Origin: Verrucomicrobiales bacterium
Lineage (GTDB): Bacteria > Verrucomicrobiota > Verrucomicrobiia > Verrucomicrobiales > DEV007
Assembly: GCA_048267005.1 (NCBI GenBank)
Contig: JBLWYI010000013.1
Location: 118,455 to 182,454 of the forward strand
Direction: 5' to 3'
Length of the DNA stretch: 64,000 nt
Part shown: one piece after another, positions 21,990 to 64,000 of the stretch
Layout of the letters: every line of letters begins with the position of its first letter
How positions within the stretch are numbered: the first letter of the stretch is position 1
Notes under the pieces: model-generated
The model's input: the letters and a program-made list of their open reading frames with translations, nothing else
Databases searched by the model: none
Told to the model about the DNA's origin: nothing
Made by a program: the position numbers and the translations under genes

Positions 21990-22032
21990 CGATCAGACCC
22001 TGTTCGTTCATCGGTCAGACCCTGTTGGATCG
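21990..22032. repeat. REP-like repeat, two copies in reverse orientation ('cagaccctgttcg', 'cagaccctgttggatcg')
   Basis: Lies between convergent sulfatase and DUF1501 genes. Confidence 0.6.
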
Positions 22033-22043
22033 TAAAGCCTCGA

Positions 22044-25648: not shown

Positions 25649-25717
25649 AGATTGAATCGTCTCTCAGGCCGCAATTTTCGTCAAGATCGTGAAATGGCTC
25701 AATCGGGCTGGCTGGAC

Positions 25718-26070: not shown

Positions 26071-26595
26071 TAGTAATGAGCCTTTTGTGTGTTGAGAGCC
26101 TGAACAGACGGGCTGGCTTGGACTTTTTCCTATGGTCCGACGCAGTTAAAGTTGAATTCGTTGAAAAACAGAACGGATTTTGGTGGTTAATGCGTTAATC
26201 AAAAGCAGGTTATAACCTTTGTTGAGTCTGTCTTGATTCCCCCTCAAACCAACCTGTTGCTGCGGTGAGTCGCCGTCCTCTCCCGCCGATATCACTTACG
26301 TAATTGTCCCGGCCGCCTCCCAAACAGGTGATTTGGCTGTGATATTTCTGGAAAATGGCTGTTTTCGGAGGCTGAAAGTCAAAATCGGCCCGTTGTGGCT
26401 ATTCGGATTTCCTTGCCAAAAGGGAGCGATTTCGTCATTCTGGCGTCATTACGTGGCACTTGTTTCCGCAGGGGTCCCTCTTGCTTAACCGCGCTTCGTA
26501 ACTATGTTTCTACTGGGTTGGTGTAATCTCGAGGCACCCATGCATTCCGAGATTTGTTCTGATCCTGTAAACTGTTTCAAGTTCCCTTCGACGTC

Positions 26596-33167: not shown

Positions 33168-33192
33168 CTGAAAACCGGAACCCTAAGAAACT

Positions 33193-35283: not shown

Positions 35284-35465
35284 ATTAACAAGGCGGGTCC
35301 ACCGGTTGCGACAATTCCTCGTTGCACCGTGGACCGACGCCGTATTTGAGGGCCGTTTGGCTTTGCCTGAACGCTACCTTCCAAGAGGTATCGAACGAGG
35401 AAGACAAATTATAGAGAACCACGGGAGGACGAGAGATCGTTGATGTCCTTGGAGCTGAAAACAAC

Positions 35466-38400: not shown

Positions 38401-40661
38401 AGGTTGGGTTGCTTCGTTTTGCTCCTGAAGACCGGGCGCTTGCGTTGCTGTTCCTTCACCAGTGGAAAACAGATGGGGGGCATGATCAACTCGCGAAGAA
38501 GATTCGTGGCCTTGGAATTCTAAGAGAGAGTTATGCTTCGGATGCGGTGGCTGAAATTTACGTTGGGGAAATCAAAGACGAGCTCAATCATTTTCTCGAA
38601 ACCAGTGCGAGAAACTGCCCTCGCCTTAAAGCGGCAAATATTGATCAAGCGGCTGAGTATTTGTTTTTCGAATTACTCGATGCAAAGAAGTTTGCGATAT
38701 CGCCTCAAGCTGGCGAGGTCGTGAAACAGTTTCAGCATACGTTAACCGCGAAGCGGCTTGAGAAGCAGTTCGCGGCCGCGGTGGAAGGTTTCAATGGTGA
38801 TGCCACGGGACGCTTCGAAGTCACTCGCGACTGGATCGAGGGAATCTGTGGAGCTGAGATTGAGAAGAATGAGGTTTCCCCTGATCAACTGTCAACGGAC
38901 GGAGAGAAGCAGGAACGATCCAACACTGTAAGTTCGTTGAACGTACCCTATTGGATCGAAGCGGCGGTTCATCTGGTTCGGGGAGGGTTTGAATTGACGG
39001 CGATTCAGCAGATTGAAATGTCAGCCGCTTTGGAGGGGATTACCGGGTCGCACTCACTTGTGGAAGACGGGGTTTACCAGTTCGATTATATCAATTTCAC
39101 TCAGAGGTTGCGTCGTTTTGAAACCGAGGACGCTCCGCGCTTCGCTGCGTATCAGCATCGCAAAACCGATTTGATCGAATCCAAGCGCGAGGAGATGCGT
39201 TTGGAAGAGTTTAAGCCCAAGGTGATGTCTGCATTTGTGCGGAATAAATTACTGAACCGAATCTATCTCCCGTTGATCGGTGACAATCTGGCGAAGCAAA
39301 TGGGAACTGCCGGTGCGGATACCCGGACAGACCGAATGGGAATGTTGCTTCTGATTTCTCCGCCCGGATACGGAAAGACGACTTTGATGGAATACGTCGC
39401 CAACCGGTTGGGGATCACATTCATGAAGATCAACGGGCCGGCCATCGGGCATGATGTGACTTCCCTGGATCCGGAAGAAGCGCCCAATGCAAGCGCCCGC
39501 GAGGAGGTCAACAAGCTGAACCTGTCGCTTGAGATGGGGGACAATGTCATGATTTATCTCGATGACATTCAGCACTGCAACCCTGAGTTTTTGCAGAAGT
39601 TTATTTCGCTATGTGATGCTCAGCGGAAGATCGAGGGCGTCTGGAAAGGCAAGCCGCGCACTTATGACTTGAGGGGAAAAAAGGTCTGCGTCGTGATGGC
39701 TGGAAACCCTTACACCGAGAGCGGTGGCAAGTTTCAGATTCCCGACATGCTCGCGAACCGGGCGGACACTTATAATCTGGGGGATATCATCGGGGCTCAT
39801 TCCGGTGACTTCGAGGCGAGTTACGTCGAGAACTGCCTCACTTCGAACTCTGTCCTGAGTCAACTCGCCAGTCGCAGTCAGTCGGATGTCTATTCGGTGA
39901 TGAAGATTGCGGAAACGGGCAGCCACGAAGGAGTCGACTTTGAAGGGAACTATTCGATGGAAGAGATTGAAGACTTGGTCTCGGTGATGAAGAAGTTGAT
40001 GCGGGTTCGCGATACGATCCTGCGGGTAAATATGGAATACATCCGTTCCGCCGCGATGGAAGATGACTACCGCACCGAGCCACCATTTAGAATGCAGGGC
40101 TCATACCGGAACATGAACCGGATCGCTGAGAAGATCTTACCGATCATGACGGATGCCGAGGTCGAGCAAGTGATTATGGATCACTATGAAAATGAATCGC
40201 AGACGCTGACGGCCGGAGCGGAGGCAAATTTGCTGAAATTCCGGGAGCTGGAAGGGATTCAGACTGATGAGGAGAAAGTGCGGTGGGATGAGATTAAATC
40301 GAAGTTCAATCGCAATCAGTTGATGGGCGGACGTGGTGAAAACGATCCTGTCTCACGGGTGGTTGGCACGCTGGCGAGTATTCATGAAACTCTGGCAAAA
40401 GCGGCAACGCACCAGATGCAGCCTGCTACGTTGGCTGATGTAACGGTTGAGAGGTTGGCTGAAATTATTGCAAACCTGCGAGCGGTTCCGGTGGATGTAG
40501 AGATCAAGGTGGTTCCCGTTCACGAAGGCGAAGAAGAGGGGCCTCCTAAGAAGGTATCGAAAAAGAAGTCAGCTAAAACGAAAAAGATCTCAGGCAAGGA
40601 GATCAACCTTCCCGTGGATGTTGAGGCTGTCGTCGACCAAAAAGATGGTAATTCGGACTAG
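35466..40661 (+). CDS. Giant (1731 aa) protein of unknown function with a single MoxR/AAA_5-like P-loop ATPase module near the C-terminus
   Basis: ATG at 35466; Walker A 'SPPGYGKTT' (~aa 1290), Walker B 'VMIYLDDIQH', sensor-1-like 'VVMAGNP', Arg-finger-like 'DMLANRADTY'; ~1250 aa upstream with no motifs I recognise; Lys-rich C-terminal tail. Confidence 0.85.
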   Translation: MPEEPIEKNTDAGASGAEQQLEGGAYEIIRNRLTQHGSDLRTRLGKLNSERQAVFGAVEPALIATERVTTDNNCEARDIIAVGDNKFIFGYNVHIGLKSITDLADVFAAYEYDPDTHTFSDVGLDILNKGTFAEDFLYLYKYYRETVFVKFMKIGPHLYMAFRVGKKVDDIKCFKWLIKEGGVLEYIGNRFDHEYRFPPQQEFEWVRAHRGMYREGMHPHVSIDDRLFVETVGGDLTVKVEDNTESGEGIYEEQVTNEDQTLDDAEIFYAIVGSLILLKVLPYQEKDYRYLVYNEKVKSVTRIDSIANSCVLLPEDHGIIFSDGFHLQTGDTKRFDSGLRDMLFERRVASPNGEDFLYVFYNRLSGTYVLMSYNLIDQKVDNPIVCNGYTVFKNGELIYFRTDEEPKKHHALQVWTTPYMEGEFRVDEKTDSYLFKIGNAEVVRAMAECHEILNLISRDDSYADLYVDLTKKAGDLIDTYFWIGQEAAFNLKAALGEIKGAAEAAISEFDKVQRLRKSTADESKRVSDSAKQIAKAARNTRPDDIMGFVHRLSELRTVRGEIISLKDLRYVDSDTVESLEAEVVEATEMVSQNCVEFLLEPVALDPYREQVSVQEKRVPEVAKVTEADQVEEELDKAGAELEMLIEIVTNLKIEDATQTTQIIDDISAIYATLNAVRASLRNRRKALSKTEGAAQFGAQVKLINQAVINYLDLCETPEKTDEYLSKVMVQLEELEGNFSDFEDYVDELTEKRDEIYNAFESKKVALVEARNKRAGSLVKSAERVLTTIQHRLSSLDSIPDINGYLAGDLMVEKVRDIIEQLNLVGDSVKADDIQTRLKTLRDDSVRQLKDRQELFVDGKNIIQFGNNKFSVNSQELELSIVPHNEKMCFHLSGTDFFEAVTDEEFLSTKSVWNQEVLSENRTVYRAEYLAWKCLQAGVEPTLEAVQKFMAPRYAEGYTKGVHDRDGFAIYEKLHSVHSQVGLLRFAPEDRALALLFLHQWKTDGGHDQLAKKIRGLGILRESYASDAVAEIYVGEIKDELNHFLETSARNCPRLKAANIDQAAEYLFFELLDAKKFAISPQAGEVVKQFQHTLTAKRLEKQFAAAVEGFNGDATGRFEVTRDWIEGICGAEIEKNEVSPDQLSTDGEKQERSNTVSSLNVPYWIEAAVHLVRGGFELTAIQQIEMSAALEGITGSHSLVEDGVYQFDYINFTQRLRRFETEDAPRFAAYQHRKTDLIESKREEMRLEEFKPKVMSAFVRNKLLNRIYLPLIGDNLAKQMGTAGADTRTDRMGMLLLISPPGYGKTTLMEYVANRLGITFMKINGPAIGHDVTSLDPEEAPNASAREEVNKLNLSLEMGDNVMIYLDDIQHCNPEFLQKFISLCDAQRKIEGVWKGKPRTYDLRGKKVCVVMAGNPYTESGGKFQIPDMLANRADTYNLGDIIGAHSGDFEASYVENCLTSNSVLSQLASRSQSDVYSVMKIAETGSHEGVDFEGNYSMEEIEDLVSVMKKLMRVRDTILRVNMEYIRSAAMEDDYRTEPPFRMQGSYRNMNRIAEKILPIMTDAEVEQVIMDHYENESQTLTAGAEANLLKFRELEGIQTDEEKVRWDEIKSKFNRNQLMGGRGENDPVSRVVGTLASIHETLAKAATHQMQPATLADVTVERLAEIIANLRAVPVDVEIKVVPVHEGEEEGPPKKVSKKKSAKTKKISGKEINLPVDVEAVVDQKDGNSD

Positions 40662-47428: not shown

Positions 47429-47860
47429 ATGCCAACAGATTTACGCAGCCTCACTTCCGAACAAGACACACACGACTTTGGTGCCGAAGTCGCAGTCGGC
47501 CTGAAATCTGGCAGCGTCATCGGGCTGATCGGTCAGCTTGGAGCCGGGAAAACCCACTTCACTCAGGGAATCGTTAATGCTCTAGGATCAGAGGAATCAG
47601 TCACCAGCCCGACTTTTACGCTGGTTAACGAATACCATGACGGTCGGCTTCCGGTCTTCCACTTTGACTTTTACCGGATGGATACCCGCGACGAAGTCCT
47701 CAAGATTGGGTGGGACGAATTCCTCGACGAGCCGGGTATCGTCATTGTCGAGTGGGCCGATAAATTTGCCGAATTGATGCCCGAAGAAACATCCTGGTTC
47801 ACATTCAAGATCCAACCGGACGGCACCCGAACGATCGAACAGGGTCTGTCCGACAAGTGA
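47429..47860 (+). CDS. tsaE: tRNA threonylcarbamoyladenosine biosynthesis protein TsaE
   Basis: ATG at 47429; P-loop 'GQLGAGKT' and 'SPTFTLVNEY' TsaE motifs. Confidence 0.9.
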   Translation: MPTDLRSLTSEQDTHDFGAEVAVGLKSGSVIGLIGQLGAGKTHFTQGIVNALGSEESVTSPTFTLVNEYHDGRLPVFHFDFYRMDTRDEVLKIGWDEFLDEPGIVIVEWADKFAELMPEETSWFTFKIQPDGTRTIEQGLSDK

Positions 47861-47874
47861 ACAGGGTTGGATCG
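47831..47874. repeat. REP-like repeat pair ('cgatcgaacagggtctg' + 'gaacagggttggatcg') spanning the tsaE stop codon
   Basis: First copy encodes the last residues of TsaE (..EQGLSDK*), second copy lies in the convergent intergenic gap. Confidence 0.65.
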
Positions 47875-47879
47875 AAAAC

Positions 47880-48860
47880 CTAGACCGTTTGGCTGGTCTT
47901 TCGCTTTGCCCAGGCCGCTGCGCCCATCACTCCCGCATCATCTTCGAGGCTGGCTGCCACCACCTTGAAGCTGTTCTTGTAAGTCGCGATGAGATGCTTG
48001 TTGGCTGATTTGTGAACGTTCTTCACGTAAAGGTCAGGCAGAGCTTCGACTAAGCCACCACCGAGAACAATCAGGTCCGGTGCCAGGAGATGCACCACGG
48101 TGGCCACGCCGGCTCCCAGAGTTTTTGCCGCCTCCTTCACAATCTTTTCGATCGCTTTGTCGCCTTTCTCAATTGAGGCCGCGAGCTTTCCGCTGGTGAT
48201 TTTAGAAATATCAGTACCGCACAGTTTCAATAAATGGGGAGCCTGTCCACGGTAGGCCGCGCGGGCCGCTTCGATTGCAATTTTCAATCGGCTGCACTCA
48301 GTTTCCAGAGACGGGCCACCGTTCCCCAGAGGGATGTGTCCCAGCTCCATACAGGAAAGCTTGCCGCCCTGAAGCAACTGGCCATCCAGAACCGCACCCG
48401 CACCAATCCCGGTTCCGGGGAAAATTCCCACCACACAGTCCACACCTTTGGCGACACCCATTTGGTATTCGGCATAGATCCCGGCATCGACGTCATTGCA
48501 AATCCAGGTCGGAGCCCCGAACTCAGCAGTCAGATGCTCAGAGACCGGTACGTTTTTCCAGCCCAGATTCGGGGCTTCCACGAGGATGCCCGTCTTCGGG
48601 TTGATTGGACCGGGGCAACCCACTCCAATCGTTTCGATCTGATCCGCAGTTACTCCCGCGTTGTCGAGGGCTTCGCGAATAGTCAGTGCCATTCTCTTCA
48701 AGCCGGAGCTGACTCCGCGATGGCCTTCCGTTTTCGTCTTGGCACGTCCCAGCTCTTCGAAATTGTCATCGAAAATCTTAGCCAGCATTTTCGTGCCGCC
48801 GAGATCGAATCCGACGATGACTGAACCAGTATGAGATGGGGGGGATTGTTCTTTGCTCAT
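47880..48860 (-). CDS. ROK family sugar kinase (glucokinase-like)
   Basis: 'VIVGFDLGGTKM' and 'GCPGPIN' ROK motifs; ATG overlaps the dxr stop. Confidence 0.9.
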   Translation of the reverse strand: MSKEQSPPSHTGSVIVGFDLGGTKMLAKIFDDNFEELGRAKTKTEGHRGVSSGLKRMALTIREALDNAGVTADQIETIGVGCPGPINPKTGILVEAPNLGWKNVPVSEHLTAEFGAPTWICNDVDAGIYAEYQMGVAKGVDCVVGIFPGTGIGAGAVLDGQLLQGGKLSCMELGHIPLGNGGPSLETECSRLKIAIEAARAAYRGQAPHLLKLCGTDISKITSGKLAASIEKGDKAIEKIVKEAAKTLGAGVATVVHLLAPDLIVLGGGLVEALPDLYVKNVHKSANKHLIATYKNSFKVVAASLEDDAGVMGAAAWAKRKTSQTV

Positions 48861-50029
48861 GACGCAACGATTGAGGTGGCTGTCTCACGGGCCCATGTAT
48901 CTGCAGCGATAATTTCGTCCAGAGTCGGATGCGCTGTCACGGAGTGATCGGCCATTACCTGACCCACCGTTTCCCAGATTTGGGGAAAACCCAACGATTT
49001 TTCCAGAAAAGCGGCCACTGCAATCTCATTGGCAGCATTCATCACTGCCGGAAGCGTTCCTCCTTCTTTGCCCGCCCGCTTGGCGAGATTCAGAGCCGGG
49101 AAGTCATCAAACCTGGGTTTCTCAAAATCGAGCTGCGCCAGTTCGGCGAAATCAAGCGGTGGCAATGTGTTTGGAACCCGCTCCGGCCAGGTCACTGCGT
49201 ATTGAATCGGGAAACACATGTCCGTGGTGCTGAGCTGCGCCAGAATGGAGCCATCAATAAATTCCACCATGCTGTGGACGATACTCTGTGGGTGGACGAT
49301 GACATCGACGCGATCCATTTCGACATCGAAGAGCCATCGTGCCTCTATCATTTCCAGGCCTTTGTTGAAAAGGGTCGCAGAGTCGATCGTGATCTTCCGG
49401 CCCATTTCCCATGTGGGGTGTTTCAAGGCCTGCTCCACGGTGACAGCATCCAGTTCCTCCTTCGGTGACTGGCGAAAAGGCCCACCGGACGCCGTCAGGA
49501 TAAGTCGGGAAACATCGGTCGATTTCTTTCCCTCAAGACACTGGAAGATCGCATTGTGCTCCGAGTCGACCGGCAACACATTGACTCCTTTTTCGCGGGC
49601 AGCGGTCATCACCGCTTCGCCGGCCATGACCAGAATCTCCTTGCTGGCTACGGCAATGTCTTTCCCGGCCTCGATAGCTGCCAGCGCAGGGCGGAGCCCG
49701 TCCGTGCCGACAATCGCGATGAGAACCATGTCAGCTTCAGGCAGCGTGGCCAGCTCGATCATGCCCTCTTCGCCGACACCGGTCTTTATATCGATCCCGT
49801 TTAAGCCACTCTTCAATTCGCCATGGCAGGATTCGTCCGTCAGCGAGCAATGTTTGACTGAGAATTCCGCACACTGTTCAGCGAGACGCTTCGCACTGCG
49901 ATTCGCGGCGAGAGCGATGACCTCCATTCTCTCCGGAATATCGCGAGCCACTTTAAGCGCGCTTTCCCCGATGGAACCGGTGGATCCAAGAATAACGAGT
50001 TTTTTCGGGGGAGGGGAGTCTTCAGGCAT
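48857..50029 (-). CDS. dxr: 1-deoxy-D-xylulose 5-phosphate reductoisomerase
   Basis: 'KKLVILGSTGSIGESAL' NADPH-binding motif; ATG at 50029 preferred over GTG at 50038. Confidence 0.95.
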   Translation of the reverse strand: MPEDSPPPKKLVILGSTGSIGESALKVARDIPERMEVIALAANRSAKRLAEQCAEFSVKHCSLTDESCHGELKSGLNGIDIKTGVGEEGMIELATLPEADMVLIAIVGTDGLRPALAAIEAGKDIAVASKEILVMAGEAVMTAAREKGVNVLPVDSEHNAIFQCLEGKKSTDVSRLILTASGGPFRQSPKEELDAVTVEQALKHPTWEMGRKITIDSATLFNKGLEMIEARWLFDVEMDRVDVIVHPQSIVHSMVEFIDGSILAQLSTTDMCFPIQYAVTWPERVPNTLPPLDFAELAQLDFEKPRFDDFPALNLAKRAGKEGGTLPAVMNAANEIAVAAFLEKSLGFPQIWETVGQVMADHSVTAHPTLDEIIAADTWARETATSIVAS

Positions 50030-50034
50030 GTGGG

Positions 50035-50940
50035 TCACGAAATAAACAGCAAATACAGATACAGAACAGGAGCGGTAAACAGCACTGAATCAATCAGATC
50101 CAGCACCCCACCAATGCCGGGCATTTTGCGGCCGGAATCTTTGGCTTCCAGGCTTCGCTTCAGGATTGATTCCGCCAAATCTCCCAAAACCGCGACCAGC
50201 GCCAGCGCTACCGCCAGTATGGCGGCATGAAGCGGAGTGATCAGGGGAATCTTGTCCCCGAAGAGAAAATACGCTCCGAAACTCGCAATGAATCCAAAGA
50301 GAATGGCCCCGCCGAAGCCCTGCCAGGTCTTACCGGGGCTGACATGCGGTACCATTTTGTCGCGACCGATCAGTGAGCCCACCGCGTAGGCACCCATATC
50401 GGTGAACTTGGTGACCATCAGCAGGAAAAGAACGTAAAAATGAGCAGAATCGTTTCCGGACGTATCTTTCAGATCGAGCAGCAGGATCTTCGGCACAAAA
50501 GCGAAAAGAATCACGATGTAGATAAAACCAAAGATGGTCGTCGATATTTCATCCAGTGTCCGGAACCCTTCAATCGGGGCGCGCAACCGTTCCAGCACAA
50601 CACAGATCACCAGCGCTGCGACGGCCAGGCTGTCCAGATCAACAAGCCAGTCCGGCGAGAAACCCCAGTGCCGGGCAAAAAGCAACCCGAGGTAGGCTGC
50701 AGTGACCCCATAGGTCTGCCATTGAAACCGGCGAAAGCCCCGCAGGGGGAACAGTCCGAAGTATTCAAACAACGCCAGAAACGCGATGGCCCCGGCGATG
50801 GTGAAAAACAACCAGTCGATCGCCAACCAGAACGCCACGACGAAAAAGGCCCACAAAAAAAGCGTGCTGACGAGGCGGCTGCCGAAAACTTGTTTTTTCG
50901 AAGGCTTAGGGGCGGTTTTTTCTGAAGAATCGTCGGACAT
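50035..50940 (-). CDS. cdsA: Phosphatidate cytidylyltransferase (CDP-diglyceride synthase)
   Basis: C-terminal signature 'ESILKRSLEAKDSGRKMPGIGGVLDLIDS'; ATG at 50940. Confidence 0.9.
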   Translation of the reverse strand: MSDDSSEKTAPKPSKKQVFGSRLVSTLFLWAFFVVAFWLAIDWLFFTIAGAIAFLALFEYFGLFPLRGFRRFQWQTYGVTAAYLGLLFARHWGFSPDWLVDLDSLAVAALVICVVLERLRAPIEGFRTLDEISTTIFGFIYIVILFAFVPKILLLDLKDTSGNDSAHFYVLFLLMVTKFTDMGAYAVGSLIGRDKMVPHVSPGKTWQGFGGAILFGFIASFGAYFLFGDKIPLITPLHAAILAVALALVAVLGDLAESILKRSLEAKDSGRKMPGIGGVLDLIDSVLFTAPVLYLYLLFIS

Positions 50941-51036
50941 GCAAGCGGGCAATTCGCCGCCAAGGAAACAGGGTCACGACCGAGTTGGCAATGACGAAGT
51001 TGCGCAAATTCACCACTTAAAGCGTTAGTTCCGGTT

Positions 51037-51381
51037 TCAATCAGGTTCTCCCCGCTTCGCATCACCCACCCCATCAAGGAAGAATTCGAGGTGACCGCAT
51101 TCCGGGCAGTGGTAAATGTCGAACCGCTCCGATCGCGAGCCGAGTTGGAACCCCATCAGGTGAATTTCAAGTGAGTCATCCTCTTTAAACCTGCGGGTGC
51201 CGTCATAAACGAGCTGCTTGTTGCAGCGAAGACAGCTCATGAAGCGTTTGATTTTCTTCGCATGAGCTTGTCGCTCCAGGGCCAACTCATCCGGCTTTGC
51301 TCCTTTGTCAGAAGAGCAGCGCCAGCAAGTTTCCCACGAATCTTCGTCGATTTCGGCTTCGCATACCAGGCAGGTCCACAT
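51037..51381 (-). CDS. Small double zinc-ribbon protein (hypothetical)
   Basis: Two CxxC..CxxC pairs ('CLVCEAE..CWRCSS', 'CLRCNK..CPECGH'). Confidence 0.6.
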   Translation of the reverse strand: MWTCLVCEAEIDEDSWETCWRCSSDKGAKPDELALERQAHAKKIKRFMSCLRCNKQLVYDGTRRFKEDDSLEIHLMGFQLGSRSERFDIYHCPECGHLEFFLDGVGDAKRGEPD

Positions 51382-51407
51382 CCGTTGTTTCTATCAGAAA
51401 TCTACGG

Positions 51408-52250
51408 TTACGGCCTCCCTTTTCCTTTTGAGCCTTTACCTTTGCCCCCTTTATCCCCGCCTTTGCCCCCGCCGCTGTCGATTTTGCCATCGCCATCACG
51501 ATCCTCGCCGTAGGGCATTTCGTTCTCGAAAAAGATTCGCTCGCGGCGGCCCGTGTCGACGTGTTCGCTGTAGACTTTGCGTTCTTCAGTGAGGGAAAAC
51601 CCTGTATTGGCTTTCAAAAGCGCAGTCTTGATTTCTTCGGCGCTGGCTGTGAGTGGCAATTGCTCGACCACCCGTCCCGATTGACCAAATGGATCGGCAT
51701 GGACGATGACGAGCCCGGATTTGCCCCGTGTCCGTTCAATGTTTTCGGCCCAGGCGGCATCTTTGGCCGTATCGGCGAAGTCGAGATGAAATTTCCCGAT
51801 GACCTCGTCATCCGCGAAAACCGGTTTGAGGGTTTGCTTTACCTTGGCCTGATCATCATCAGCTGCGGCGACAAAGAGCAGCAATCGTTGGTCTCCAGCC
51901 GCCACATTCAGGGCCTGCCGAAAGGTGTGAAAGTCTTGCAGCGTCGCGTCCTTTTCATCACCACGGGGGCGATAGGACATTGCGATGTTTTCCAGCGCTT
52001 TGATCACTTCTTCGGCCGACGGTTCATTATCCGGGCCGGGGCGACCGGCGGAAAGCCCGTGCTCAGGACCGCGACCGGTGCGGGAGAGCCGTTCCTTTCC
52101 GTCAGGTGCCAGAATGCAGAACGCGGTGTTGGCGAATCGACCGTTTAAAAGGGACCGGACCAAATCCTGGTGTTCCTGGCTTTCATATGATTCGAGACGG
52201 ACACAGACAAATTTACGTGAAGCTTCGATGAATTCTTTTTGTGAGAACAA
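51408..52250 (-). CDS. Hypothetical protein with Gly/Lys-rich C-terminal tail
   Basis: 280-aa ORF with TTG start (no in-frame ATG near the N-terminus); tail 'GGGKGGDKGGKGKGSKGKGRP'. Confidence 0.55.
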   Translation of the reverse strand: MFSQKEFIEASRKFVCVRLESYESQEHQDLVRSLLNGRFANTAFCILAPDGKERLSRTGRGPEHGLSAGRPGPDNEPSAEEVIKALENIAMSYRPRGDEKDATLQDFHTFRQALNVAAGDQRLLLFVAAADDDQAKVKQTLKPVFADDEVIGKFHLDFADTAKDAAWAENIERTRGKSGLVIVHADPFGQSGRVVEQLPLTASAEEIKTALLKANTGFSLTEERKVYSEHVDTGRRERIFFENEMPYGEDRDGDGKIDSGGGKGGDKGGKGKGSKGKGRP

Positions 52251-52277
52251 ACTGTTCTGCGTTTTGGTGTAACCGGG

Positions 52278-52505
52278 TCAGAACACTCCGGAGATGCCGG
52301 AGCAGGTAGCGGCGGCTGCCATGAAGAAAATAGGTCGATTGGAGCGGGCTGCTTCTGCGAGAGCGGTGTCCCAGGTCGTGTACCACATAATGCCGGCATC
52401 ACCGACTGGTTGAGGGCTCGCCGCGATGTCGGTCGGGCGGGTTCCCTGTGAGTATACTGCAGTTGCCCCGAGGGTTGCTACCATAAGTGTTTTCAGGATA
52501 TTCAT
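52278..52505 (-). CDS. Small putative secreted protein (75 aa)
   Basis: ATG; signal-peptide-like 'MNILKTLMVATLGATAVYSQG'; directly upstream of the preceding hypothetical gene. Confidence 0.35.
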   Translation of the reverse strand: MNILKTLMVATLGATAVYSQGTRPTDIAASPQPVGDAGIMWYTTWDTALAEAARSNRPIFFMAAAATCSGISGVF

Positions 52506-52594
52506 AGGAAGATGAACAAAGCATGAATAAAGTGGTTGCAGAATTTTCTGATTTTCGAATGAAGGCGAACAGATCTTCCTTCCAAATGCGTGAA

Positions 52595-52637
52595 CGATCC
52601 AACAGGGTCTGATCGACGAGGCAACCCTGTTGTCTCG
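52595..52637. repeat. REP-like repeat, inverted pair forming a hairpin ('ccaacagggtctg ... caaccctgttg')
   Basis: 8-bp perfect inverted cores separated by ~15 nt. Confidence 0.6.
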
Positions 52638-52727
52638 TGCGTCTTTTCAGCTAGGGAAAACCGACTGCTTCCTGTCTTTTAATGCCAACTTTGAAGCATG
52701 AGTTTGACCTGGAAAAAGTACCCAATT

Positions 52728-52990
52728 TGCGGGTCCGCACGAACGGTACCCTGCCGTCAGGACGTCCTGACGGGCAGGTACCACACGGATATGGGCAAAA
52801 GTGCGTCCTGACGGGCAGGTACCACACGGATATGGGCAAAAGTGCGCCCTGACGGGCATAAATCGCACGGACATGGGCAAAAGGACGTCCTGACGGTCAT
52901 AAATCGTACGGACATGAGCAAAAGGACGTCCTGACGGTCATAAATCGTACGGACATGAGCAAAAGGACGTCCTGACGGTGGGTGCCGTCC
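52728..52990. repeat. Tandem array, 41-bp unit, ~6 copies ('gacgggcaggtaccacacggatatgggcaaaagtgcgtcct'; later units diverged to 'gacggtcataaatcgtacggacatgagcaaaaggacgtcct')
   Basis: Contiguous units without spacers; first unit contains a GACGTC-centred palindrome. Confidence 0.9.
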
Positions 52991-53086
52991 GCGAAATGGC
53001 GAAAATGGTGCCTGAACGCGGGAGTTTCGATTGGTGTATCGGCGCTGAACTTTTTGAGAGCACCCGGTTTGTAAACGGGGCGCAGT

Positions 53087-55003
53087 TTGCTACGTTCGCG
53101 CGTGTCATCTCCTGAAAAACGCAAAATTGCCTACCTGTTTTCCCGTTATCCGGTTGTTTCGCAGACTTTTTGCGATTCGGAAATGCTGGCTCTGGAATCC
53201 CGTGGCTTTGATCTCGACATCGCATCGATCAATCCACCGCCAAATCCGTTTCGTCACGAGAGGTTTGAGCAATTCGAGGCAGATGCTTTTTACCCGCCGT
53301 CTTCGTCCGTGCTGTCTCAACTGAAGAAGAACGCCCAGGCGGACGGAACGTGGCAGGAGCGCTTCGGGGACATGATTGCCCGTCATAACACGGAATACGG
53401 GCCGGGTTTCAAGGCTGATATCCGGGCGAGGAATGCGCTCTATTTTGCTGAACTCTTCAAGAAGCGCGGGATTCAGCATTTCCACGTCCATTTCGCCAAC
53501 CGGGCGACACACACGGCTCTTTTCATCAAACAATGGTCCGGGATTCCGTTCAGTTTCACGCCTCATGCCCAGGATTTCATGATCGATCTGGGCAGCGACG
53601 ATTTGTTGCGGGAGATGTGTCGTGAAGCTGAGTTTGTCATCGGGGTGAGCGATTTTTCCTGTGATCTGCTGCGCGAGACCTGCCCCGACTCCGCAGAAAA
53701 GATCAGCCGGATTTACAACGGGATCGACATGAGTCAGTTCCCGCAGGCACCCATCAATGACACGGGACCACTGCGGATTGTTTCGATTGGCCGGTTGATC
53801 GACTTCAAAGGGTTCAATCATTTGATCGCCGCCTGCGCTCTCCTCAAGGAACGCGGCGTAGAGTTTTCCCTGACGATTGTGGGGGACGGTCCGTTGCGGG
53901 AGCCGTTGCAAAATCAAATCGCAGAGCTCGGGTTGGAAGCTGAAGTCACGCTTGCCGGGGTGATGAGCCAGGAGCAGGTGAAATCCACGCTCCAGAACAG
54001 TGAGGTGTTTGCTCTGGCCTGTGTGGTCGATTCCAAGGGAGCGAGTGACATTTTACCGACGGTGATTACCGAGGCGATGGGTTGCCGGTTGCCGATTGTG
54101 TCGACGAGGCTCGTTGGAGTTCCTGAGATGGTTGATCATGAGAAGACAGGTCTTCTTGTCGAGCCCGGAAACGAAGCTGAACTGGCGGACGCCCTGGCTG
54201 TTTTTGCTGAGGATCGTGGAAAGGCCCGCGCTATGGGACTGGCTGGTCGCGAGCGGTCGGAATCGATCTTCGAGTTGAAGATCACGGCGGATCAATTGAT
54301 CTCCAAATTTGAGTCAGTCATGGCGCCACCGGCGGAGGTGCCGCAAAATCCACCGATACTGTTTTTGGTGGATGAATTCCCGCTTTCAACATCAGCCAAC
54401 GAATGGCATCGCGAATCGATCCTGAATGAGCTGGCGTTTGCCGCCAAACATCACGCGGAGGCCATTGAGATCATGGCGGCCCGTTCGGCGCGTCGTTTTG
54501 ATAAGGAGCGAACGGCTGAGATCTTCCCGAACTGGGCGGAGACGGTTGAGTTTTTCCCGGACGGGCTGGTTTTGGAAGCGGAGTGGCACAACCAACCGGA
54601 GGCCGTTTCAAGAATTCTCGAATTGCGGGGCAAGTTGGGGACGGGGCTTGATACCGAATTTTACTTTGCCCAGGCGAGGCGGGCTTTACATCTCGCGCGG
54701 GTGATTCGGAAACGTGGCACAGCACGACTCCACGCGGTCCGGAGTGACATGGCGGTGTGTGCGTGGCTCGTCTTTAAATTGACGGGAGTTCCGTTTTCGT
54801 TTTCGGCGGAGCCGGATTCATCAATAGGATCGGACACGCTGGATAAACTTGCCAGTGATGCGGTCGAAATCGCGAAGCTGGATTTGGCAGAGCCGGATCG
54901 CACCAAGCGCCTCAAACTGGGACCGCTGAAACTGAAGTTGCCCGGTGAATCAGACCTGCCTGAACGCAGCGGAGCTCTGGAGGCCTGGTTCGGCAATCTG
55001 TAA
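53087..55003 (+). CDS. Glycosyltransferase family 4 (GT-B, group 1) with ~230-aa C-terminal extension of unknown function
   Basis: 'EAMGCRLPIVSTRLVGVPEMVDHEKTGLLVEPGN' GT4 motif; start is TTG (53087) or GTG (53102), no ATG near the N-terminus. Confidence 0.8.
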   Translation: MLRSRVSSPEKRKIAYLFSRYPVVSQTFCDSEMLALESRGFDLDIASINPPPNPFRHERFEQFEADAFYPPSSSVLSQLKKNAQADGTWQERFGDMIARHNTEYGPGFKADIRARNALYFAELFKKRGIQHFHVHFANRATHTALFIKQWSGIPFSFTPHAQDFMIDLGSDDLLREMCREAEFVIGVSDFSCDLLRETCPDSAEKISRIYNGIDMSQFPQAPINDTGPLRIVSIGRLIDFKGFNHLIAACALLKERGVEFSLTIVGDGPLREPLQNQIAELGLEAEVTLAGVMSQEQVKSTLQNSEVFALACVVDSKGASDILPTVITEAMGCRLPIVSTRLVGVPEMVDHEKTGLLVEPGNEAELADALAVFAEDRGKARAMGLAGRERSESIFELKITADQLISKFESVMAPPAEVPQNPPILFLVDEFPLSTSANEWHRESILNELAFAAKHHAEAIEIMAARSARRFDKERTAEIFPNWAETVEFFPDGLVLEAEWHNQPEAVSRILELRGKLGTGLDTEFYFAQARRALHLARVIRKRGTARLHAVRSDMAVCAWLVFKLTGVPFSFSAEPDSSIGSDTLDKLASDAVEIAKLDLAEPDRTKRLKLGPLKLKLPGESDLPERSGALEAWFGNL

Positions 55004-55013
55004 AAATGAAAAT

Positions 55014-55044
55014 GCCGGAGTTGAAAACAACTCCGGCATTTCTT
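55014..55044. terminator. Bidirectional rho-independent terminator (gccggagtt / aactccggc hairpin with T-rich flanks on both strands)
   Basis: 9-bp stem, 6-nt loop, between the convergent GT4 and fasciclin genes. Confidence 0.55.
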
Positions 55045-55092
55045 CCCGGGCGCTAAAAGGAGGGAATCGCCCGGGAGTAAAGATTTTCAGGA

Positions 55093-55626
55093 TTAGCTCT
55101 TCGGCATAATCACTGCATCGATGACGTGAATGACACCGTTTGATGCTTTGACGTCAGTGGCGGTAACGTTTGCACCGTCGATCATGACTTTACCGTCTTC
55201 GACTTTCACGCTGGCTTCAGTTCCGTTTACGGTAGGGGCCATCATGGTTTTTACATCAGCTGCCATTACTTTCGCAGGCACAACGTGGTAGGTGAGAATG
55301 GCAACGAGCTTCTCTTTGTTTTCCGGCTTGAGCAGCATTTCGACGGTTCCTTCAGGAAGTTTTTCGAAGGCTTCGTTGGTGGGCGCAAAAACAGTGAACG
55401 GACCTTCACCGGAGAGTGTTTCAACAAGGTCGGCTGCTTTGACTGCGGCAACGAGGGTTGAGAAGTCCTTATTTCCGGCTGCAACTTCCACGATGTTCTT
55501 TTCCTCGTGGTTATCAGCAAGGGCTGAAAGGGTAAGACCTGCGGTCACGATGATCGCGAGTGCTGAAGTGGTGATTTTGGTAGTGAGTTTCATTCTGTTA
55601 TTTCTGGTTGCCCGTGAATTCTTCAT
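55093..55626 (-). CDS. Fasciclin (FAS1) domain protein, secreted
   Basis: '[18 protein letters not shown]' and '[10 protein letters not shown]' FAS1 motifs; start at ATG 55626 or 55593. Confidence 0.8.
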
Positions 55627-55811
55627 GAATGCGGGTTGATCAGTGATTCGGGCGAGATGAATCATTGGATCTACTTTTTTCAGAAAAGAATTTCCGGGCT
55701 CAGAATAAGACGGCGAATGGCCGGCTCATCAGCCCTTGTCGCGAACGGGAAACCGAACAGATCGGGAGACTGAGCGTTTGGCCTCAAACGGGGGCTGATC
55801 GTGGAACGTGA

Positions 55812-59474: not shown

Positions 59475-60878
59475 ATGGGGAGTCCAATTCGAAGGAGAAA
59501 CTTTATCAGCCGTTCCGCGCAGTTCGCAGCGGGAAGCCTTGCCGCCCGGACCGTGCAAACGGGATTCGCAGCCGGAGACAGCACACCTGATTATTACATC
59601 CCGGGGCAGCGGGGGTATGAAACGGCGCGGCGGCCTTTCAACACCGAGGTGGGATTGAAGCCCGGGGTGATTGCCGCCTGCGAGAACGATGCCCATGTGG
59701 TCACGGCCGTGAATCGGGCGAGGGCAGAAGGGCTGCCGATATCGGTTAAAAGCCGTGGCCACAGCTTCGAGGGATTTTCGCTGAACGAAGACGGGCTGGT
59801 GATTGAGCTGTCACGCCTTTCGCAACCTGTCCTGACGGCGGATCAGCGTTTCATTTCAGGGCCCGGCATCACCCTGGGGGATGTGTATGGTTTTCTCCTG
59901 CCCAAAGGACGACTGCTTCCGGCTGGCTCCTGCTCCGGCGTGGGGTTGGGCGGGCTGACTCTCGGTGGAGGCTATGGTCTCTTTGCCCGGCAGTTTGGAT
60001 TGACCTGTGATCTCCTGGAGCGGGTTCGCATGGTGGATGGCAGGGGGCAGGTTGTGGATTCCCGTGATGATCCCGATCTGCTGTGGGCCTGTCGCGGTGG
60101 TGGCAACGGCAATTTTGGAGCGATCACATCGATGGAGTTCAGAACGGTGGAAGCTCCACCAATGTTGTCTGCCCAACGGTTTAAGTCAGGAACGGTCTCG
60201 GTGGCCGAAGCCAATCGCAAAGCTGAGCTGTGGTTTGCCATGGCAAAAGAGTTGCCTGATGCGATTTTCTCCGGATTCATCGTGAACGGCAAAAACATCA
60301 CCGTCCTGATCACGTCGACCTACTCCCATTCCGGCCCGGCTTTTCAGCGGGCAGTCGCAGCGATGAAAGCGGCGGGATTCACCAGCAATGGTCCCTCTCA
60401 GACCGCGACCCAACAGGCCATCAAACGATACTACGGCGCGCAGTCCCCGCTTCCGTTTAGAAATTTCTGTGGGGGGATGGCTGACAGCTTCGCTGATTAT
60501 GCTCCGGCCATGCCGGCTGTGATGGAGGAAATACAGCGCTCGAATGTGATGATTCAGTTCAACACGCTGGGCGGTATGATCTCCCGGGCCGCCAGTGGTG
60601 CCTATCCGCATCGGAAGCGCCAATTTCTCTCGGAAGTTCAGGCCTACTGGAGCAAACCGGATCAGCGGGATGCGAAAGTGGCGGCGACACAACGTATCCG
60701 TGAACATTTGGCCCGGGTTGTCAGTGCTCATTACCGGAATTACCCGAGCATTGATTTCCCCAACTGGGAGGAGGCGTATTATGGGAAGAGTTACGCGAAG
60801 CTGCAGGAGTTGAAGCTTCGCTACGATCCCGAAAACCTGTTTCGTCATCCGCAAAGTGTCCGGCTCCCCGGGCAATAG
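59475..60878 (+). CDS. FAD-linked oxidase (berberine-bridge-enzyme-like), Tat-secreted
   Basis: 'RRNFISRSAQFAAGSLAA' Tat signal; C-terminal BBE motif 'YRNYPSIDFPNWEEAYYGKSYAKLQELKLRYDPENLF'. Confidence 0.9.
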   Translation: MGSPIRRRNFISRSAQFAAGSLAARTVQTGFAAGDSTPDYYIPGQRGYETARRPFNTEVGLKPGVIAACENDAHVVTAVNRARAEGLPISVKSRGHSFEGFSLNEDGLVIELSRLSQPVLTADQRFISGPGITLGDVYGFLLPKGRLLPAGSCSGVGLGGLTLGGGYGLFARQFGLTCDLLERVRMVDGRGQVVDSRDDPDLLWACRGGGNGNFGAITSMEFRTVEAPPMLSAQRFKSGTVSVAEANRKAELWFAMAKELPDAIFSGFIVNGKNITVLITSTYSHSGPAFQRAVAAMKAAGFTSNGPSQTATQQAIKRYYGAQSPLPFRNFCGGMADSFADYAPAMPAVMEEIQRSNVMIQFNTLGGMISRAASGAYPHRKRQFLSEVQAYWSKPDQRDAKVAATQRIREHLARVVSAHYRNYPSIDFPNWEEAYYGKSYAKLQELKLRYDPENLFRHPQSVRLPGQ

Positions 60879-60882
60879 ATTT

Positions 60883-62562
60883 ATGCCGCCATCGCTCCCG
60901 ACATCCAGTTCCGCCCGTCTCCATGATCTGGATGCGTTGCGGGCCTTTGCGATGTTGCTGGGCATTATTCTACACGCCGCCATCGCCTTCGTTCCGTTTC
61001 CCGGTTGGCTCGTGCAGGATGTGGAGAGACCGATGTGGAACACCCCTGAATTTCTCCACCAGCTGGGCCTCACCCTGCCGGAGACGTTCAGCCCGATGGC
61101 TCTGTTGCTCAACCTCATCCACGCCTTCCGGATGCAGTTGTTCTTTGTCGTGAGTGGATTCTTTGCGGCCATGCTCTGGAAAAAGCGCGGGCTGCGGGCA
61201 TTGCTCAAGCATCGCGCAAAACGCATCCTCCTGCCGCTCGTTCCGGCCACGATACTTATCTGGCCGCTCGTCGCACTCGCGGGGCTTATGGTGGCAGGGA
61301 CAAAGCCGGATTCTCTCTGGGTGGCGGCGAAGGAGGGGCGGATCGAGGTGGTGAAAGCGCAGCTTGAGGCAGGAGTCGACCCGAACGAACTCGATCCGTC
61401 AGCCGGTGTTTCGGCCCTGACCTGGTCGGCATGCGCCGGGCATCTGGAGGTCGCTGAATGGTTGATTGCCAGCGGAGCCGAGGTGGAACGGCGGGATCGG
61501 GACGGGGGAACACCTCTCCATGCCGCGGTGTTCTTCGCCCATCCAGAGGTGGTCAACTTGCTGGTGGCGAATGGCGCTGACGTACAGGTCAAGAATCAGC
61601 GGGGCGAATCGGCCCTTGATGTGGTTGAGGCTGACTACGGAACCACAAAATTCATTGGCAGGCTGATCGGGGTTCCTGTCAAAGAAGAGGCAGCCTTCGC
61701 TGATAGCCGTGAGCAAATAGGAAAACGCTTGGGGAAACTCGAAGGGGAAGTTGAGAGCGATTCAACGTGGGAGATTTGGAAGATGATTCTCGGTGTCTAC
61801 ATGGCAGCGGCGATGGCTCCGGTCTTTCTGCACCTGTGGTTTCTGCACTATCTCTTTTGGCTTGTCCTGTTGTTTGCCTTCGCGGCCTGGAGGTATGAAA
61901 AATCGGGCCGCAAATTTCGTCCCCGGATTGCCTGGTTGATTCCATTGGCGGTTATTCCGCAGCTGTTCATGGTCCTGGATTTTGGTCCCGACACCGCTCC
62001 GGGATTGATCCTGTGGCTGCCCAAGCTTGCCTACTACGCGGTGTTCTTCGGAGTCGGGGCCCTGTTTTATGGGCGGCCGGATTTTGGTGAGAAGCTCAAG
62101 CTTCGATGGCCTGTGCTCTTTGCCGTGGCTCTGCCGGTCGGCTGCATCGCCCTGTATTTCAATTTCCTGAGAGACGTGACCTTTGAAGCCGGCTTTGATG
62201 AGAATCAGGTGCCGGTATTTGGCTTTCACATCATCTATTGCATCGGCGCGGTGGCATTCGCCTGGCTTATGGTCTTCGGGATGATTGGAGTCTTCCGCCG
62301 GTTTTTTCCCGCAGAAGACCCGCGGATTCGCTACATTTCAGACGCGAGCTACTGGCTCTACATCGCGCATTTGCCGCTGCTGTTTTTCATCCAAATCGCC
62401 ATGACCGGCTGGGAGTTTCCCGCGCTGTTGAAACTGTTGATCGCCTGCGTTGCCACGATTGGAATTCTCCTTCTCGCCTACGAGTGGTTCGTTCGATACA
62501 CTTTTATCGGCACATTGCTGAATGGGAAAAAAGTGAAGCCGTCACGAACCAACAGGGTCTGA
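60883..62562 (+). CDS. Acyltransferase family 3 (OafA-like) membrane protein with internal ankyrin-repeat insert
   Basis: 'LDALRAFAMLLGIILHAAIAF' AT3 N-terminus; ankyrin repeats ('GGTPLHAAVFFAHPEVVNLLVANGADV'); ATG at 60883 just after the upstream stop. Confidence 0.85.
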   Translation: MPPSLPTSSSARLHDLDALRAFAMLLGIILHAAIAFVPFPGWLVQDVERPMWNTPEFLHQLGLTLPETFSPMALLLNLIHAFRMQLFFVVSGFFAAMLWKKRGLRALLKHRAKRILLPLVPATILIWPLVALAGLMVAGTKPDSLWVAAKEGRIEVVKAQLEAGVDPNELDPSAGVSALTWSACAGHLEVAEWLIASGAEVERRDRDGGTPLHAAVFFAHPEVVNLLVANGADVQVKNQRGESALDVVEADYGTTKFIGRLIGVPVKEEAAFADSREQIGKRLGKLEGEVESDSTWEIWKMILGVYMAAAMAPVFLHLWFLHYLFWLVLLFAFAAWRYEKSGRKFRPRIAWLIPLAVIPQLFMVLDFGPDTAPGLILWLPKLAYYAVFFGVGALFYGRPDFGEKLKLRWPVLFAVALPVGCIALYFNFLRDVTFEAGFDENQVPVFGFHIIYCIGAVAFAWLMVFGMIGVFRRFFPAEDPRIRYISDASYWLYIAHLPLLFFIQIAMTGWEFPALLKLLIACVATIGILLLAYEWFVRYTFIGTLLNGKKVKPSRTNRV

Positions 62563-62587
62563 CCGGTGAGGCAACAGGGTTGGATCG
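62543..62587. repeat. REP-like repeat pair ('cgaaccaacagggtctgaccg' + 'gaggcaacagggttggatcg') spanning the acyltransferase stop codon
   Basis: Same two-unit arrangement as at the tsaE 3' end. Confidence 0.65.
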
Positions 62588-62597
62588 TATAATACCA

Positions 62598-63002
62598 CTA
62601 AGACTTAGTGATAATTTCATCGGCCAGTTTATCGGTGATCCCTTCTCGAGCGTCCACCCACTTCAGGCTTTTAATTTCATCAGGGATGTCACAATCATGA
62701 AGGAGAATGGGAACAACTCTGGCCAAAGTATTCATAGGGTCGTTGAATAAATGTAACCATACCTCGAAATTAGCCCATTTTGATTCTACAAAAGAAGGGG
62801 ATAGTAAAATGAGAGCCCGTCGCGAATTCTTCATTCCTGCAACAACTTCTATTCCAATATTTGCCCCATAATTTAGATCGTCGTCAAACCAGCACGGACG
62901 ACCTTTGGATGTGAAAATATCTCGAAGTAGTTTTGCTTCAATCTTGTCGTCCGAAGAATGGGAGAGAAAGAAGCTAAATTGGTATTTGTCGATTTTGCTC
63001 AT
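62598..63002 (-). CDS. Minimal TIR-domain protein (134 aa)
   Basis: 'FSFFLSHSSDD' beta-A motif, 'ALILLSPSFVESKWANFEVW' with Glu in the catalytic-Glu position; ATG overlaps the upstream gene stop (ATGA); region GC ~40%. Confidence 0.85.
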   Translation of the reverse strand: MSKIDKYQFSFFLSHSSDDKIEAKLLRDIFTSKGRPCWFDDDLNYGANIGIEVVAGMKNSRRALILLSPSFVESKWANFEVWLHLFNDPMNTLARVVPILLHDCDIPDEIKSLKWVDAREGITDKLADEIITKS

Positions 63003-63574
63003 GCTGCTTTCGCCAATGACATCGAAAGTTCTTTCCCCCGATCAGTCAGTTCAAATAGCTTTTCTTTGTGGCCCGCTTTCTCAATATTGCTTTCAACAAA
63101 GCAGCCTTGGCTAATTAAGGAATTTACTTGCGCCGTCGCGTTTGTAGATGAAGCGCCATATTCGCTTTTTAGCCGAACCGTGAGAATTGACGTGCGTAGG
63201 TATACTTCAGGCACTTCCAACTCTTGCAGCCACCCCATCAGAAGAAGCTTATCTTTGAATTGATTTAACCTGTGAATCGCATCTTTGGCACTGTATTCAA
63301 CAGACCCGTTTCGCTTAATTCGCTTCCGTTTAAATTGGTGCAAAACAAGCCGTCTAAGGTGTCGAGGGCTCACTTCCAAGAGTTCGCTCAAGAGACCAAG
63401 CGATATCCGATCAAGGGGTTCCTCGTCCGCTAAATGAATGAAATTTGGAAGATAGTAATCATCTTCAAGTCCAATTTCGATAAGGATTTCCTGCATTGCA
63501 AGGTCACGCTGCTCTCCCTTAATCTGCAAAAACGTATTCAACGCTTGCAAATAGTTATTCGTTTCGGGCCCCAT
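62999..63574 (-). CDS. HTH/winged-helix domain protein (191 aa), translationally coupled partner of the TIR gene
   Basis: HTH-like 'LGLLSELLEVSPRHLRRLV' and C-terminal winged-helix-like 'AQVNSLISQGCFVESNIEKAGHKEKLFELTDRGKEL'; low GC. Confidence 0.75.
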   Translation of the reverse strand: MGPETNNYLQALNTFLQIKGEQRDLAMQEILIEIGLEDDYYLPNFIHLADEEPLDRISLGLLSELLEVSPRHLRRLVLHQFKRKRIKRNGSVEYSAKDAIHRLNQFKDKLLLMGWLQELEVPEVYLRTSILTVRLKSEYGASSTNATAQVNSLISQGCFVESNIEKAGHKEKLFELTDRGKELSMSLAKAA

Positions 63575-63861
63575 TTAGGGGGCAATTTAGCAAGCGGCAC
63601 ATAAAACTCAATGAAAATCGGACTGAAATTAGTGCAATTTGCAAAATACAGCTGATTTCTTCTGTTCGCAAGCGGTATTTTGGATTTATTAACTAAATCG
63701 TTTAGTTGGAATTCTGTTTTGCCATGAAATGGTTTAGGACGAATTAACATTTGGTCGGTCGTAATCATTGTTGTGCTGAAAACCTCGGTGAGCGTTTTCT
63801 GGGAAATCACATGAATGGCCGCTTCATTACTAATTTTGCCCCTTGTTCGACCAAACGGCAA
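63538..63861 (-). CDS. Hypothetical small Lys-rich protein, possible third gene of the low-GC islet
   Basis: 107-aa ORF in AT-rich DNA (where random ORFs are rarer); TTG start or an internal ATG; overlaps the partner-gene start by 37 nt out of frame. Confidence 0.25.
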   Translation of the reverse strand: MPFGRTRGKISNEAAIHVISQKTLTEVFSTTMITTDQMLIRPKPFHGKTEFQLNDLVNKSKIPLANRRNQLYFANCTNFSPIFIEFYVPLAKLPPKWGPKRITICKR

Positions 63862-63868
63862 GAGGAGC

Positions 63869-64000
63869 GACCTTCCGAACGTTCAGACACGGGGTTGTGA
63901 AAAACGTACGACCTTCCGAATGCTCAGACACGGGGTTGTGAAAAACAAACGACCTTCCGAACGTTCAGATACGAGGTTGTGAAAAACAAATGACCTTCCG
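63869..64000. repeat. Tandem array, 41-bp unit, at least 3.2 copies, truncated by window end ('gaccttccgaacgttcagacacggggttgtgaaaaacgtac')
   Basis: Contiguous units with point variants; runs to the last base of the window. Confidence 0.9.

Follow-up and report, generated by a model that had tools for sequence, protein, structure and literature searches.

The REP and BIME elements of enterobacteria and the MIRU elements of mycobacteria are short extragenic repeats that lie at gene ends and are sometimes arranged in tandem, and the sopC-type centromere of F consists of 12 units of 43 bp, each of which contains an inverted repeat. Intergenic minisatellites, or VNTR loci, are also found in bacteria and are used in MLVA typing (VNTRDB, PMC1781188). 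In Streptococcus pneumoniae, the 45-bp boxB subunit of the BOX elements is tandemly repeated at many loci (PMC1315331), and the BrickBuilt MITE of Porphyromonas gingivalis, of which there are 19 copies per genome, consists of a 23-nt minisatellite plus leader and tail subunits (PMC4596501). Here, we compare with these systems a 41-bp tandem array (array 3) that lies next to a low-GC islet encoding a TIR protein, together with two further arrays of the same period (arrays 1 and 2), all located in one stretch of 64,000 nucleotides of Verrucomicrobiales chromosomal DNA, which is referred to below as the window. The window contains purH, dxr, cdsA and class II tRNA synthetase genes, is rich in PSCyt/PSD/DUF1501 and sulfatase genes, and encodes proteins whose nearest named homologues are those of Verrucomicrobiales MAGs. 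Its plus strand also encodes, at 32421-40661, two proteins without a Pfam match (248 and 696 aa) followed by a 1,731-aa DUF3686 / DUF7902 / AAA ATPase, which may together form an operon of a defence type or of a DNA-repair type. The features on which the comparison turns are as follows:

25718 to 26069, no strand assigned: array 1, a 41-bp tandem array of 8.6 copies (Tandem Repeats Finder)
52594 to 52638, plus strand: REP-like element beside array 2, with inverted, not direct, arms
52759 to 52978, no strand assigned: array 2, a 41-bp tandem array of 5.4 copies with two unit subtypes (Tandem Repeats Finder, copy table)
62544 to 62588, plus strand: REP-like element (two 22-bp units, core AACAGGGT) that extends over the acyltransferase stop codon (gene 60856-62562)
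62598 to 63002, minus strand: second gene of the cassette, encoding a 134-aa TIR_2 protein (Pfam PF13676, E = 6.6e-18)
62999 to 63574, minus strand: first gene of the cassette, encoding an orphan protein of 191 aa whose C-terminal part resembles a winged helix
63575 to 63867, minus strand: upstream region of the cassette, 293 bp, AT-rich (GC about 0.39), non-coding
63868 to 64000, no strand assigned: array 3, a 41-bp tandem array of 3.2 copies, cut by the window end (Tandem Repeats Finder, copy table, pattern search, Rfam, fold)

The arrays come closest to VNTR loci, with which they share head-to-tail, spacer-less units of tens of base pairs, an intergenic location, high identity between copies, edge copies that are the most diverged and absence from relatives; unlike VNTR loci, three of them lie within 64 kb and have one exact period without a common sequence. 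BOX elements are similar in that many intergenic arrays with one unit length occur in a single genome. The boxB units of different loci are homologous, however, with boxA and boxC on their flanks, whereas the window units are unrelated and no flanking modules common to the window arrays were seen. The BrickBuilt element is likewise spacer-less and always intergenic, and array 1 also has a tail and flanking direct repeats; however, BrickBuilt is one dispersed family with inverted-repeat ends, and neither a second copy of any window unit nor terminal inverted repeats were found in the DNA searched. The description of REP/BIME and MIRU elements fits the 22-bp AACAGGGT element of the window well, but not the 41-bp arrays, which are not genome-wide consensus copies and merely adjoin the REP family. 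With sopC and iterons, the arrays have in common a unit of about 41-43 bp, a head-to-tail order and a dyad in each unit, but they are chromosomal, differ from one another in sequence at all three loci, and no genes for partition or replication lie in their vicinity. The best classification for array 3 is that of an intergenic bacterial minisatellite, a known category to which it adds one more case; a literature search for 41-bp arrays or for minisatellites of Verrucomicrobia returned nothing relevant.

Tandem Repeats Finder describes array 3 as a repeat of period 41 with 90% matches, 0% indels and a score of 217, in which the number of 3.2 copies is a lower bound, as the window end cuts the array. 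Full copies begin at 63868, 63909 and 63950, an incomplete fourth copy of 10 nt starts at 63991, and every full copy agrees with the consensus CGACCTTCCGAACGTTCAGACACGGGGTTGTGAAAAACAAA at 39 of 41 positions (95%). The units follow one another head to tail without gaps or spacers, their substitutions show a transition:transversion ratio of 5:1, and the left edge of the array is sharp, the three 41-nt blocks leftward of it matching at only 9-13 of 41 positions. A 37-nt degenerate pattern of the unit had three matches in the window and none in 100 dinucleotide shuffles. The array of at least 3.2 copies running to the window end, which the initial annotation had described from position 63869, is thus confirmed by Tandem Repeats Finder and by the shuffles, with a start one base off. 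A pattern for the array 3 junction found no match in genome, metagenome or viral contig collections.

Several assignments were tried for array 3 and rejected. A coding repeat is excluded, since 41 is not divisible by 3 and an open frame across the array is lacking; the ORFs that overlap it are only short, mechanical ones. A CRISPR array was rejected, the units abutting without spacers and no Cas domains being present among the window proteins scanned. A known structured RNA family was rejected as well: Rfam 15 returned no family for the array either at the gathering score or at E ≤ 1, the sole weak match being a chance snoRNA (E = 0.94) outside it, and the RNA fold was not better than that of shuffled sequences (z = -1.6 on the plus strand and -0.06 on the minus strand). 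The unit contains an internal dyad, TCCGAACGTTCAGA, with 6 of 10 possible pairs, the best over 82 possible centres, which we judged, by an estimate made without a shuffle control, to be at chance level for a random 41-mer; with such a dyad, and with TIR, winged-helix and acyltransferase genes as neighbours, a sopC-like centromere or iteron array was dismissed. A plasmid or phage origin of the islet and array 3 was set aside, since blastn against PLSDB gave no match and the 191-aa protein of the islet had no viral relative.

Within the 64-kb window, Tandem Repeats Finder reported only three arrays with units longer than 21 bp, all of period 41. We asked whether these arrays form one family, and compared them also with the unit of a fourth 41-bp array, found in a related locus (L046, contig CAYTNL010000086.1). 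The best rotated, strand-aware identity among the three window units was 15-20 of 41 positions (shuffle p = 0.06 to 1), local alignment of dimerised units gave p = 0.3-0.95, and a four-way best-register search that included the L046 unit reached 103 of 246 against 96.9 ± 3.2 in shuffles, a value attained in 11 of 200. The weakest p-values for homology between arrays, 0.04-0.06, are uncorrected, and homology was rejected, as identity, local alignment and four-way register all lie within shuffle expectation. It had been proposed that arrays 2 and 3 constitute a loose family on account of short shared blocks. These blocks, ACACGG and G..AAAA, do exist in both arrays, but they stand in different registers and within chance; the best register of the two units matches at 19 of 41 positions (shuffle p = 0.19) and their local alignment gives p = 0.3-0.5, so that a family relationship was not upheld. 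What arrays 2 and 3 have in common is the exact period. When the window and some 0.9 Mb from related loci were searched with nhmmer profiles of the three units, each profile matched only its own array, and no solitary or dispersed copy of any unit was found in this DNA, which favours a local origin over a mobile family. Each unit appears to be locus-specific, unlike REP, BOX, MIRU and BrickBuilt elements. A half-period of 20 or 21 bp was not found inside the 41-bp units.

In all three window arrays, the copies carry distinct, ordered variants. All 12 substitutions of array 1 are transitions (12:0), and its end copies are the most diverged. Its unit has a strong internal dyad, to the extent that its own reverse strand matches in a profile search at E = 4e-5, and the RNA fold of the array beats shuffled sequences on both strands (z = -6.2 on the plus strand and -3.5 on the minus strand). 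A direct repeat of 13/14 bp, GGGCTGGCT(T)GGAC, encloses the array together with a 40-bp non-repeat tail (25705-25717 and 26110-26123) and resembles a target-site duplication or the trace of a microhomology-mediated insertion; terminal inverted repeats are absent from array 1, and no REP lies within 3.7 kb of it. Array 2 lies 118 bp from a REP (52594-52638), and its two unit subtypes, which are 78% identical, are arranged in two blocks of neighbouring subtypes. The subtypes differ mainly in one 8-bp block, GGTACCAC versus TAAATCGT, a difference that looks like a block replacement and not like scattered point changes. Its unit carries the dyad AGGACGTCCT, and its fold, like that of array 3, is no better than shuffles (z between -1.6 and +0.6). 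A nearly perfect 38-bp palindrome with GACGTC at its centre spans 52745-52782, formed by the first unit of array 2 together with the sequence to its left.

Relatives of the window that were reached via Dxr allowed the age of array 2 to be considered. The divergent gene pair flanking this array, a 280-aa gene and a GT4 glycosyltransferase gene, is kept in two related loci, L001 (Dxr 84% identical) and L002 (Dxr 90% identical), in which the spacer measures 156-160 bp as against about 620 bp in the window and contains no array, no REP and not even a single unit from which an array could have started. Because the spacer lacks the array in two relatives with the same flanking genes, array 2 is a young, lineage-specific gain; the absence from relatives covers this array only. 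We also observed that the cdsA-dxr-ROK block (window 47880-55665) is inverted and lies on the other side of the 280-aa/GT4 pair relative to both L001 and L002; a breakpoint of this local rearrangement lies near 51.0-51.3 kb.

The REP-like element next to the islet, noted in the initial annotation, is real. Further copies are present in the window at 7913-7957, 21997-22041 (minus strand) and 47837-47881, with a partial copy at 30109, which brings the window count to at least five; they lie generally at gene 3' ends and usually consist of two 22-bp units in tandem. A degenerate REP pattern matched at least 91 blocks in genome contigs, and among the matches listed, all came from Verrucomicrobiales or Akkermansiaceae MAGs with a GC content of 0.51-0.69 and showed forms of 2-6 tandem units; a stricter pattern matched 10 metagenome contigs. 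The family with the 22-bp unit is, to judge from these matches, kept across the order, and its conservation over differing base composition hints at a function, such as a binding site or an RNA-end element, and not at a purely selfish repeat. Since the family is order-wide and located at gene ends, the presence of a REP beside the islet is unremarkable in itself.

In 8-kb blocks chosen for containing a REP, all eight non-REP tandem arrays were situated 45-643 bp from the REP, five of them within 150 bp, and seven of the eight lay on its 3' side when the REP is read as AACAGGGT; this comparison was made without a null restricted to long intergenic spacers. One of the eight is the L046 array (7047-7470), which has a 41-bp period and at least 8 copies, contains a scaffold gap of 100 N and lies 87 bp from a REP, apparently in a convergent 3'-3' spacer. 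Four others have mutually unrelated units, and some of them may be coding, 21 and 42 being multiples of 3:

L036, 3761 to 4067: REP-adjacent array of period 135
L075, 3311 to 3668: REP-adjacent array of period 167
L098, 1794 to 2108: REP-adjacent array of period 42 (21 sub-period)
L090, 6487 to 6729: REP-adjacent array of period 21

Related MAGs contain non-coding arrays of periods 22, 41 and 43 (probably also 21, 42, 135 and 167), nearly always in a spacer with a REP. In the window, array 3 is separated from its REP by 1,277 bp, with the cassette filling the gap. On the simplest reading, REPs, arrays and the cassette probably collect in shared permissive spacers; it is conceivable that the link is causal, for instance through replication stalling at REPs that would seed local duplications.

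The low-GC islet (GC 0.39-0.46, compared with about 0.54-0.63 in its flanks) is a two-gene operon on the minus strand, 62598-63574, in which the orphan winged-helix protein is followed by the TIR protein. The 191-aa orphan retrieved only itself among 5.8 billion clusters and two relatives among 1.84 billion representatives, and no viral relative was found. Its AlphaFold (AF2) model (pLDDT 77) contains a C-terminal winged-helix-like unit, for which the best, but weak, Foldseek matches were F-93, PadR and MarR (E = 0.013-0.1). PADLOC returned only PDC-S66 and ThsB-like matches for the 134-aa protein, and neither a Pfam nor a PADLOC family for a mechanical 107-aa TTG ORF at 63538-63861. The predicted pair may represent an undescribed TIR defence system. 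In the public protein space searched, the only other clear instance of the cassette is in L099 (6001-6958), where the two proteins are 46% (orphan) and 58% (TIR, about 133 aa) identical to those of the window and are preceded by an upstream spacer of 291 bp, equivalent to the 293 bp of the window. This second cassette is also a low-GC islet in a high-GC genome, in a different neighbourhood, and it has no tandem array, no AACAGGGT element, no convincing flanking repeats and no border duplication. Since the L099 cassette lacks an array, array 3 is not a component of the cassette. Where other genomes encode an acyltransferase of 52% identity, the gene is not followed by the cassette, and no copy of the array 3 unit was found at the other end of the cassette.

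The initial annotation had further suggested that the REP and array 3 bracket the islet and that such repeats mark or create an insertion hotspot. The bracketing is correct: the REP, whose last base is 62588, is 9 bp away from the TIR stop codon at 62598, and array 3, from 63868 onwards, directly adjoins the AT-rich upstream region of the cassette. The hotspot holds only in part, in that spacers with a REP and an array recur, but only one of the three window arrays borders an islet. For the repeats creating insertions, we found no supporting evidence; the REP in question is one of at least five in the window and is located at an acyltransferase stop codon. A fixed tie between the islet and its flanking repeats is contradicted by the sole other copy of the cassette, L099, which is repeat-free (n = 1). 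It is reasonable to suppose that the cassette landed in a REP-array spacer, because the proximity of REPs and arrays recurs in eight related loci.

We favour, with moderate confidence, the explanation that array 3 is a non-coding, VNTR-type minisatellite that is young and confined to its locus and that the cassette is an independent, horizontally acquired insert in the same spacer. This explanation comprises the following points: (i) a single 41-bp stretch of the locus would have been doubled; (ii) the resulting array would have grown and been homogenised by replication slippage or unequal recombination; (iii) this took place in a long, insertion-tolerant spacer that also holds the REP at the 3' end of the acyltransferase gene; (iv) the winged-helix and TIR cassette would have arrived in that spacer separately, by horizontal transfer; and (v) changes in the copy number of array 3 would at most alter how far upstream sequences lie from the cassette or from the right-hand gene. 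The slippage mechanism, the neutrality and the order of events are what we infer. Gap-free copies of 95% identity, a sharp edge, a transition bias and, in array 1, diverged end copies amount to the usual signature of a homogenised satellite, as would be left by growth and homogenisation through slippage or unequal exchange, and a sequence-specific function of array 3 was not demonstrable in our analysis. Three observations speak against the minisatellite explanation: (i) slippage does not predict that three unrelated window arrays and the L046 array should all have a period of exactly 41 bp; (ii) the window arrays all lie upstream of genes, as regulatory elements also would; and (iii) array 1 has the strong dyad and fold described above.

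The shared period, 41 bp being about four helical turns, is the only feature that plain slippage leaves unexplained. The periods of the arrays that are certainly non-coding and not REPs are 41, 41 and 41 (window), 41 (L046), 43 (L077) and 22 (L086), none of the six being more than 1.5 bp away from a multiple of 10.5. We estimated post hoc that a third of integer periods would come as close, which for six arrays, not fully independent of one another, gives a probability of roughly 1e-3; this hints at helical phasing (two or four turns) or at a ruler behind the period. One way to account for it is to regard the arrays as regulatory or architectural elements, in which units of about four turns, in phase with the helix, serve as protein-binding sites or curve the DNA ahead of promoters; array 3 would then act on the TIR cassette or on the right-hand gene, and the common period would result from selection for helical phase. 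In addition to the periods themselves, this would fit the position of all three window arrays upstream of genes, arrays 1 and 2 in divergent 5'-5' spacers, a sub-period of about 10 bp in the L046 unit (20 of 41 matches at shift 10), and the presence of some dyad in each unit, as exemplified above for arrays 2 and 3. However, a separate binding protein would be required for each of the three unrelated sequences, the dyads other than that of array 1 (6-7 of 10 pairs, 82 centres) are at chance level by the estimate made without a shuffle control, and the L046 array sits in what is apparently a convergent spacer. Array 2 is, moreover, missing in close relatives with the same flanking genes, the L099 cassette does without an array, and a consensus scan of 62400-64000 found no promoter-like site, including the sigma-70-like type, and no terminator-like site. 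We regard a regulatory role as unlikely.

More generally, the unit length might be set by a factor other than sequence, either a ruler that duplicates a fixed 41 bp beside REPs or a strong filter by which only arrays of whole helical turns (about 21 or 41-43 bp) persist in these spacers, a notion to which we would give only a small chance. If true, it would mean that REP-adjacent spacers turn unrelated sequences into arrays of equal period and receive cassettes of the winged-helix/TIR type. As a dedicated mechanism, an enzyme or mobile element acting at or near REPs would duplicate a fixed 41 bp of any target, in the manner of a very long target-site duplication, and repeated cycles would build the arrays, which would then mark true insertion hotspots. 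Such a dedicated ruler agrees with the identical period of four unrelated arrays, with the proximity and polarity of arrays relative to REPs (seven of eight on the 3' side), with the position of the cassette exactly between REP and array, and with the direct repeat around array 1 and its tail. Against it, no transposase, integrase or Cas1-like protein appeared among the window proteins scanned, the array 3 unit is missing at the other end of the cassette, the remaining REP-adjacent arrays have periods of 21, 22, 42, 43, 135 and 167, array 1 has no REP inside 3.7 kb, and the borders of the L099 cassette are without duplication; we therefore hold a dedicated ruler to be quite improbable.

Transcription of the array into a repetitive, structured or processed RNA, as tandem small-RNA units, appears very unlikely: array 1 does fold far better than its shuffles, but arrays 2 and 3 behave like theirs, Rfam is empty at both thresholds, promoter-like and terminator-like sites are lacking in the region scanned, and the array is not conserved in relatives, an absence seen for array 2. 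That array 3 is a collapsed or mis-built repeat of a short-read assembly is the least credible of all, since, although such arrays are hard to assemble and that of L046 is broken by a gap, the copies of all three arrays hold distinct variants in order, an independent assembly of another genome (L046) shows a like array, the unique flanks are continuous, and an artefact would alter mainly the copy number and not the existence of the array. In this respect, short-read assembly may under-count array copies, as the L046 case illustrates, and if the genome of the window was assembled from short reads, the copy numbers given here may be too low.

To conclude, the preferred explanation of array 3 as a young minisatellite makes the locus a likely VNTR marker beside a small and rare TIR cassette, which is a minor finding when taken alone. 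If the equal periods and the one-sided clustering with REPs were to hold genome-wide, they would point to a sequence-independent process that shapes the intergenic DNA of Verrucomicrobiales, and the spacers that combine a REP with an array would be a place in which to seek newly acquired defence cassettes.
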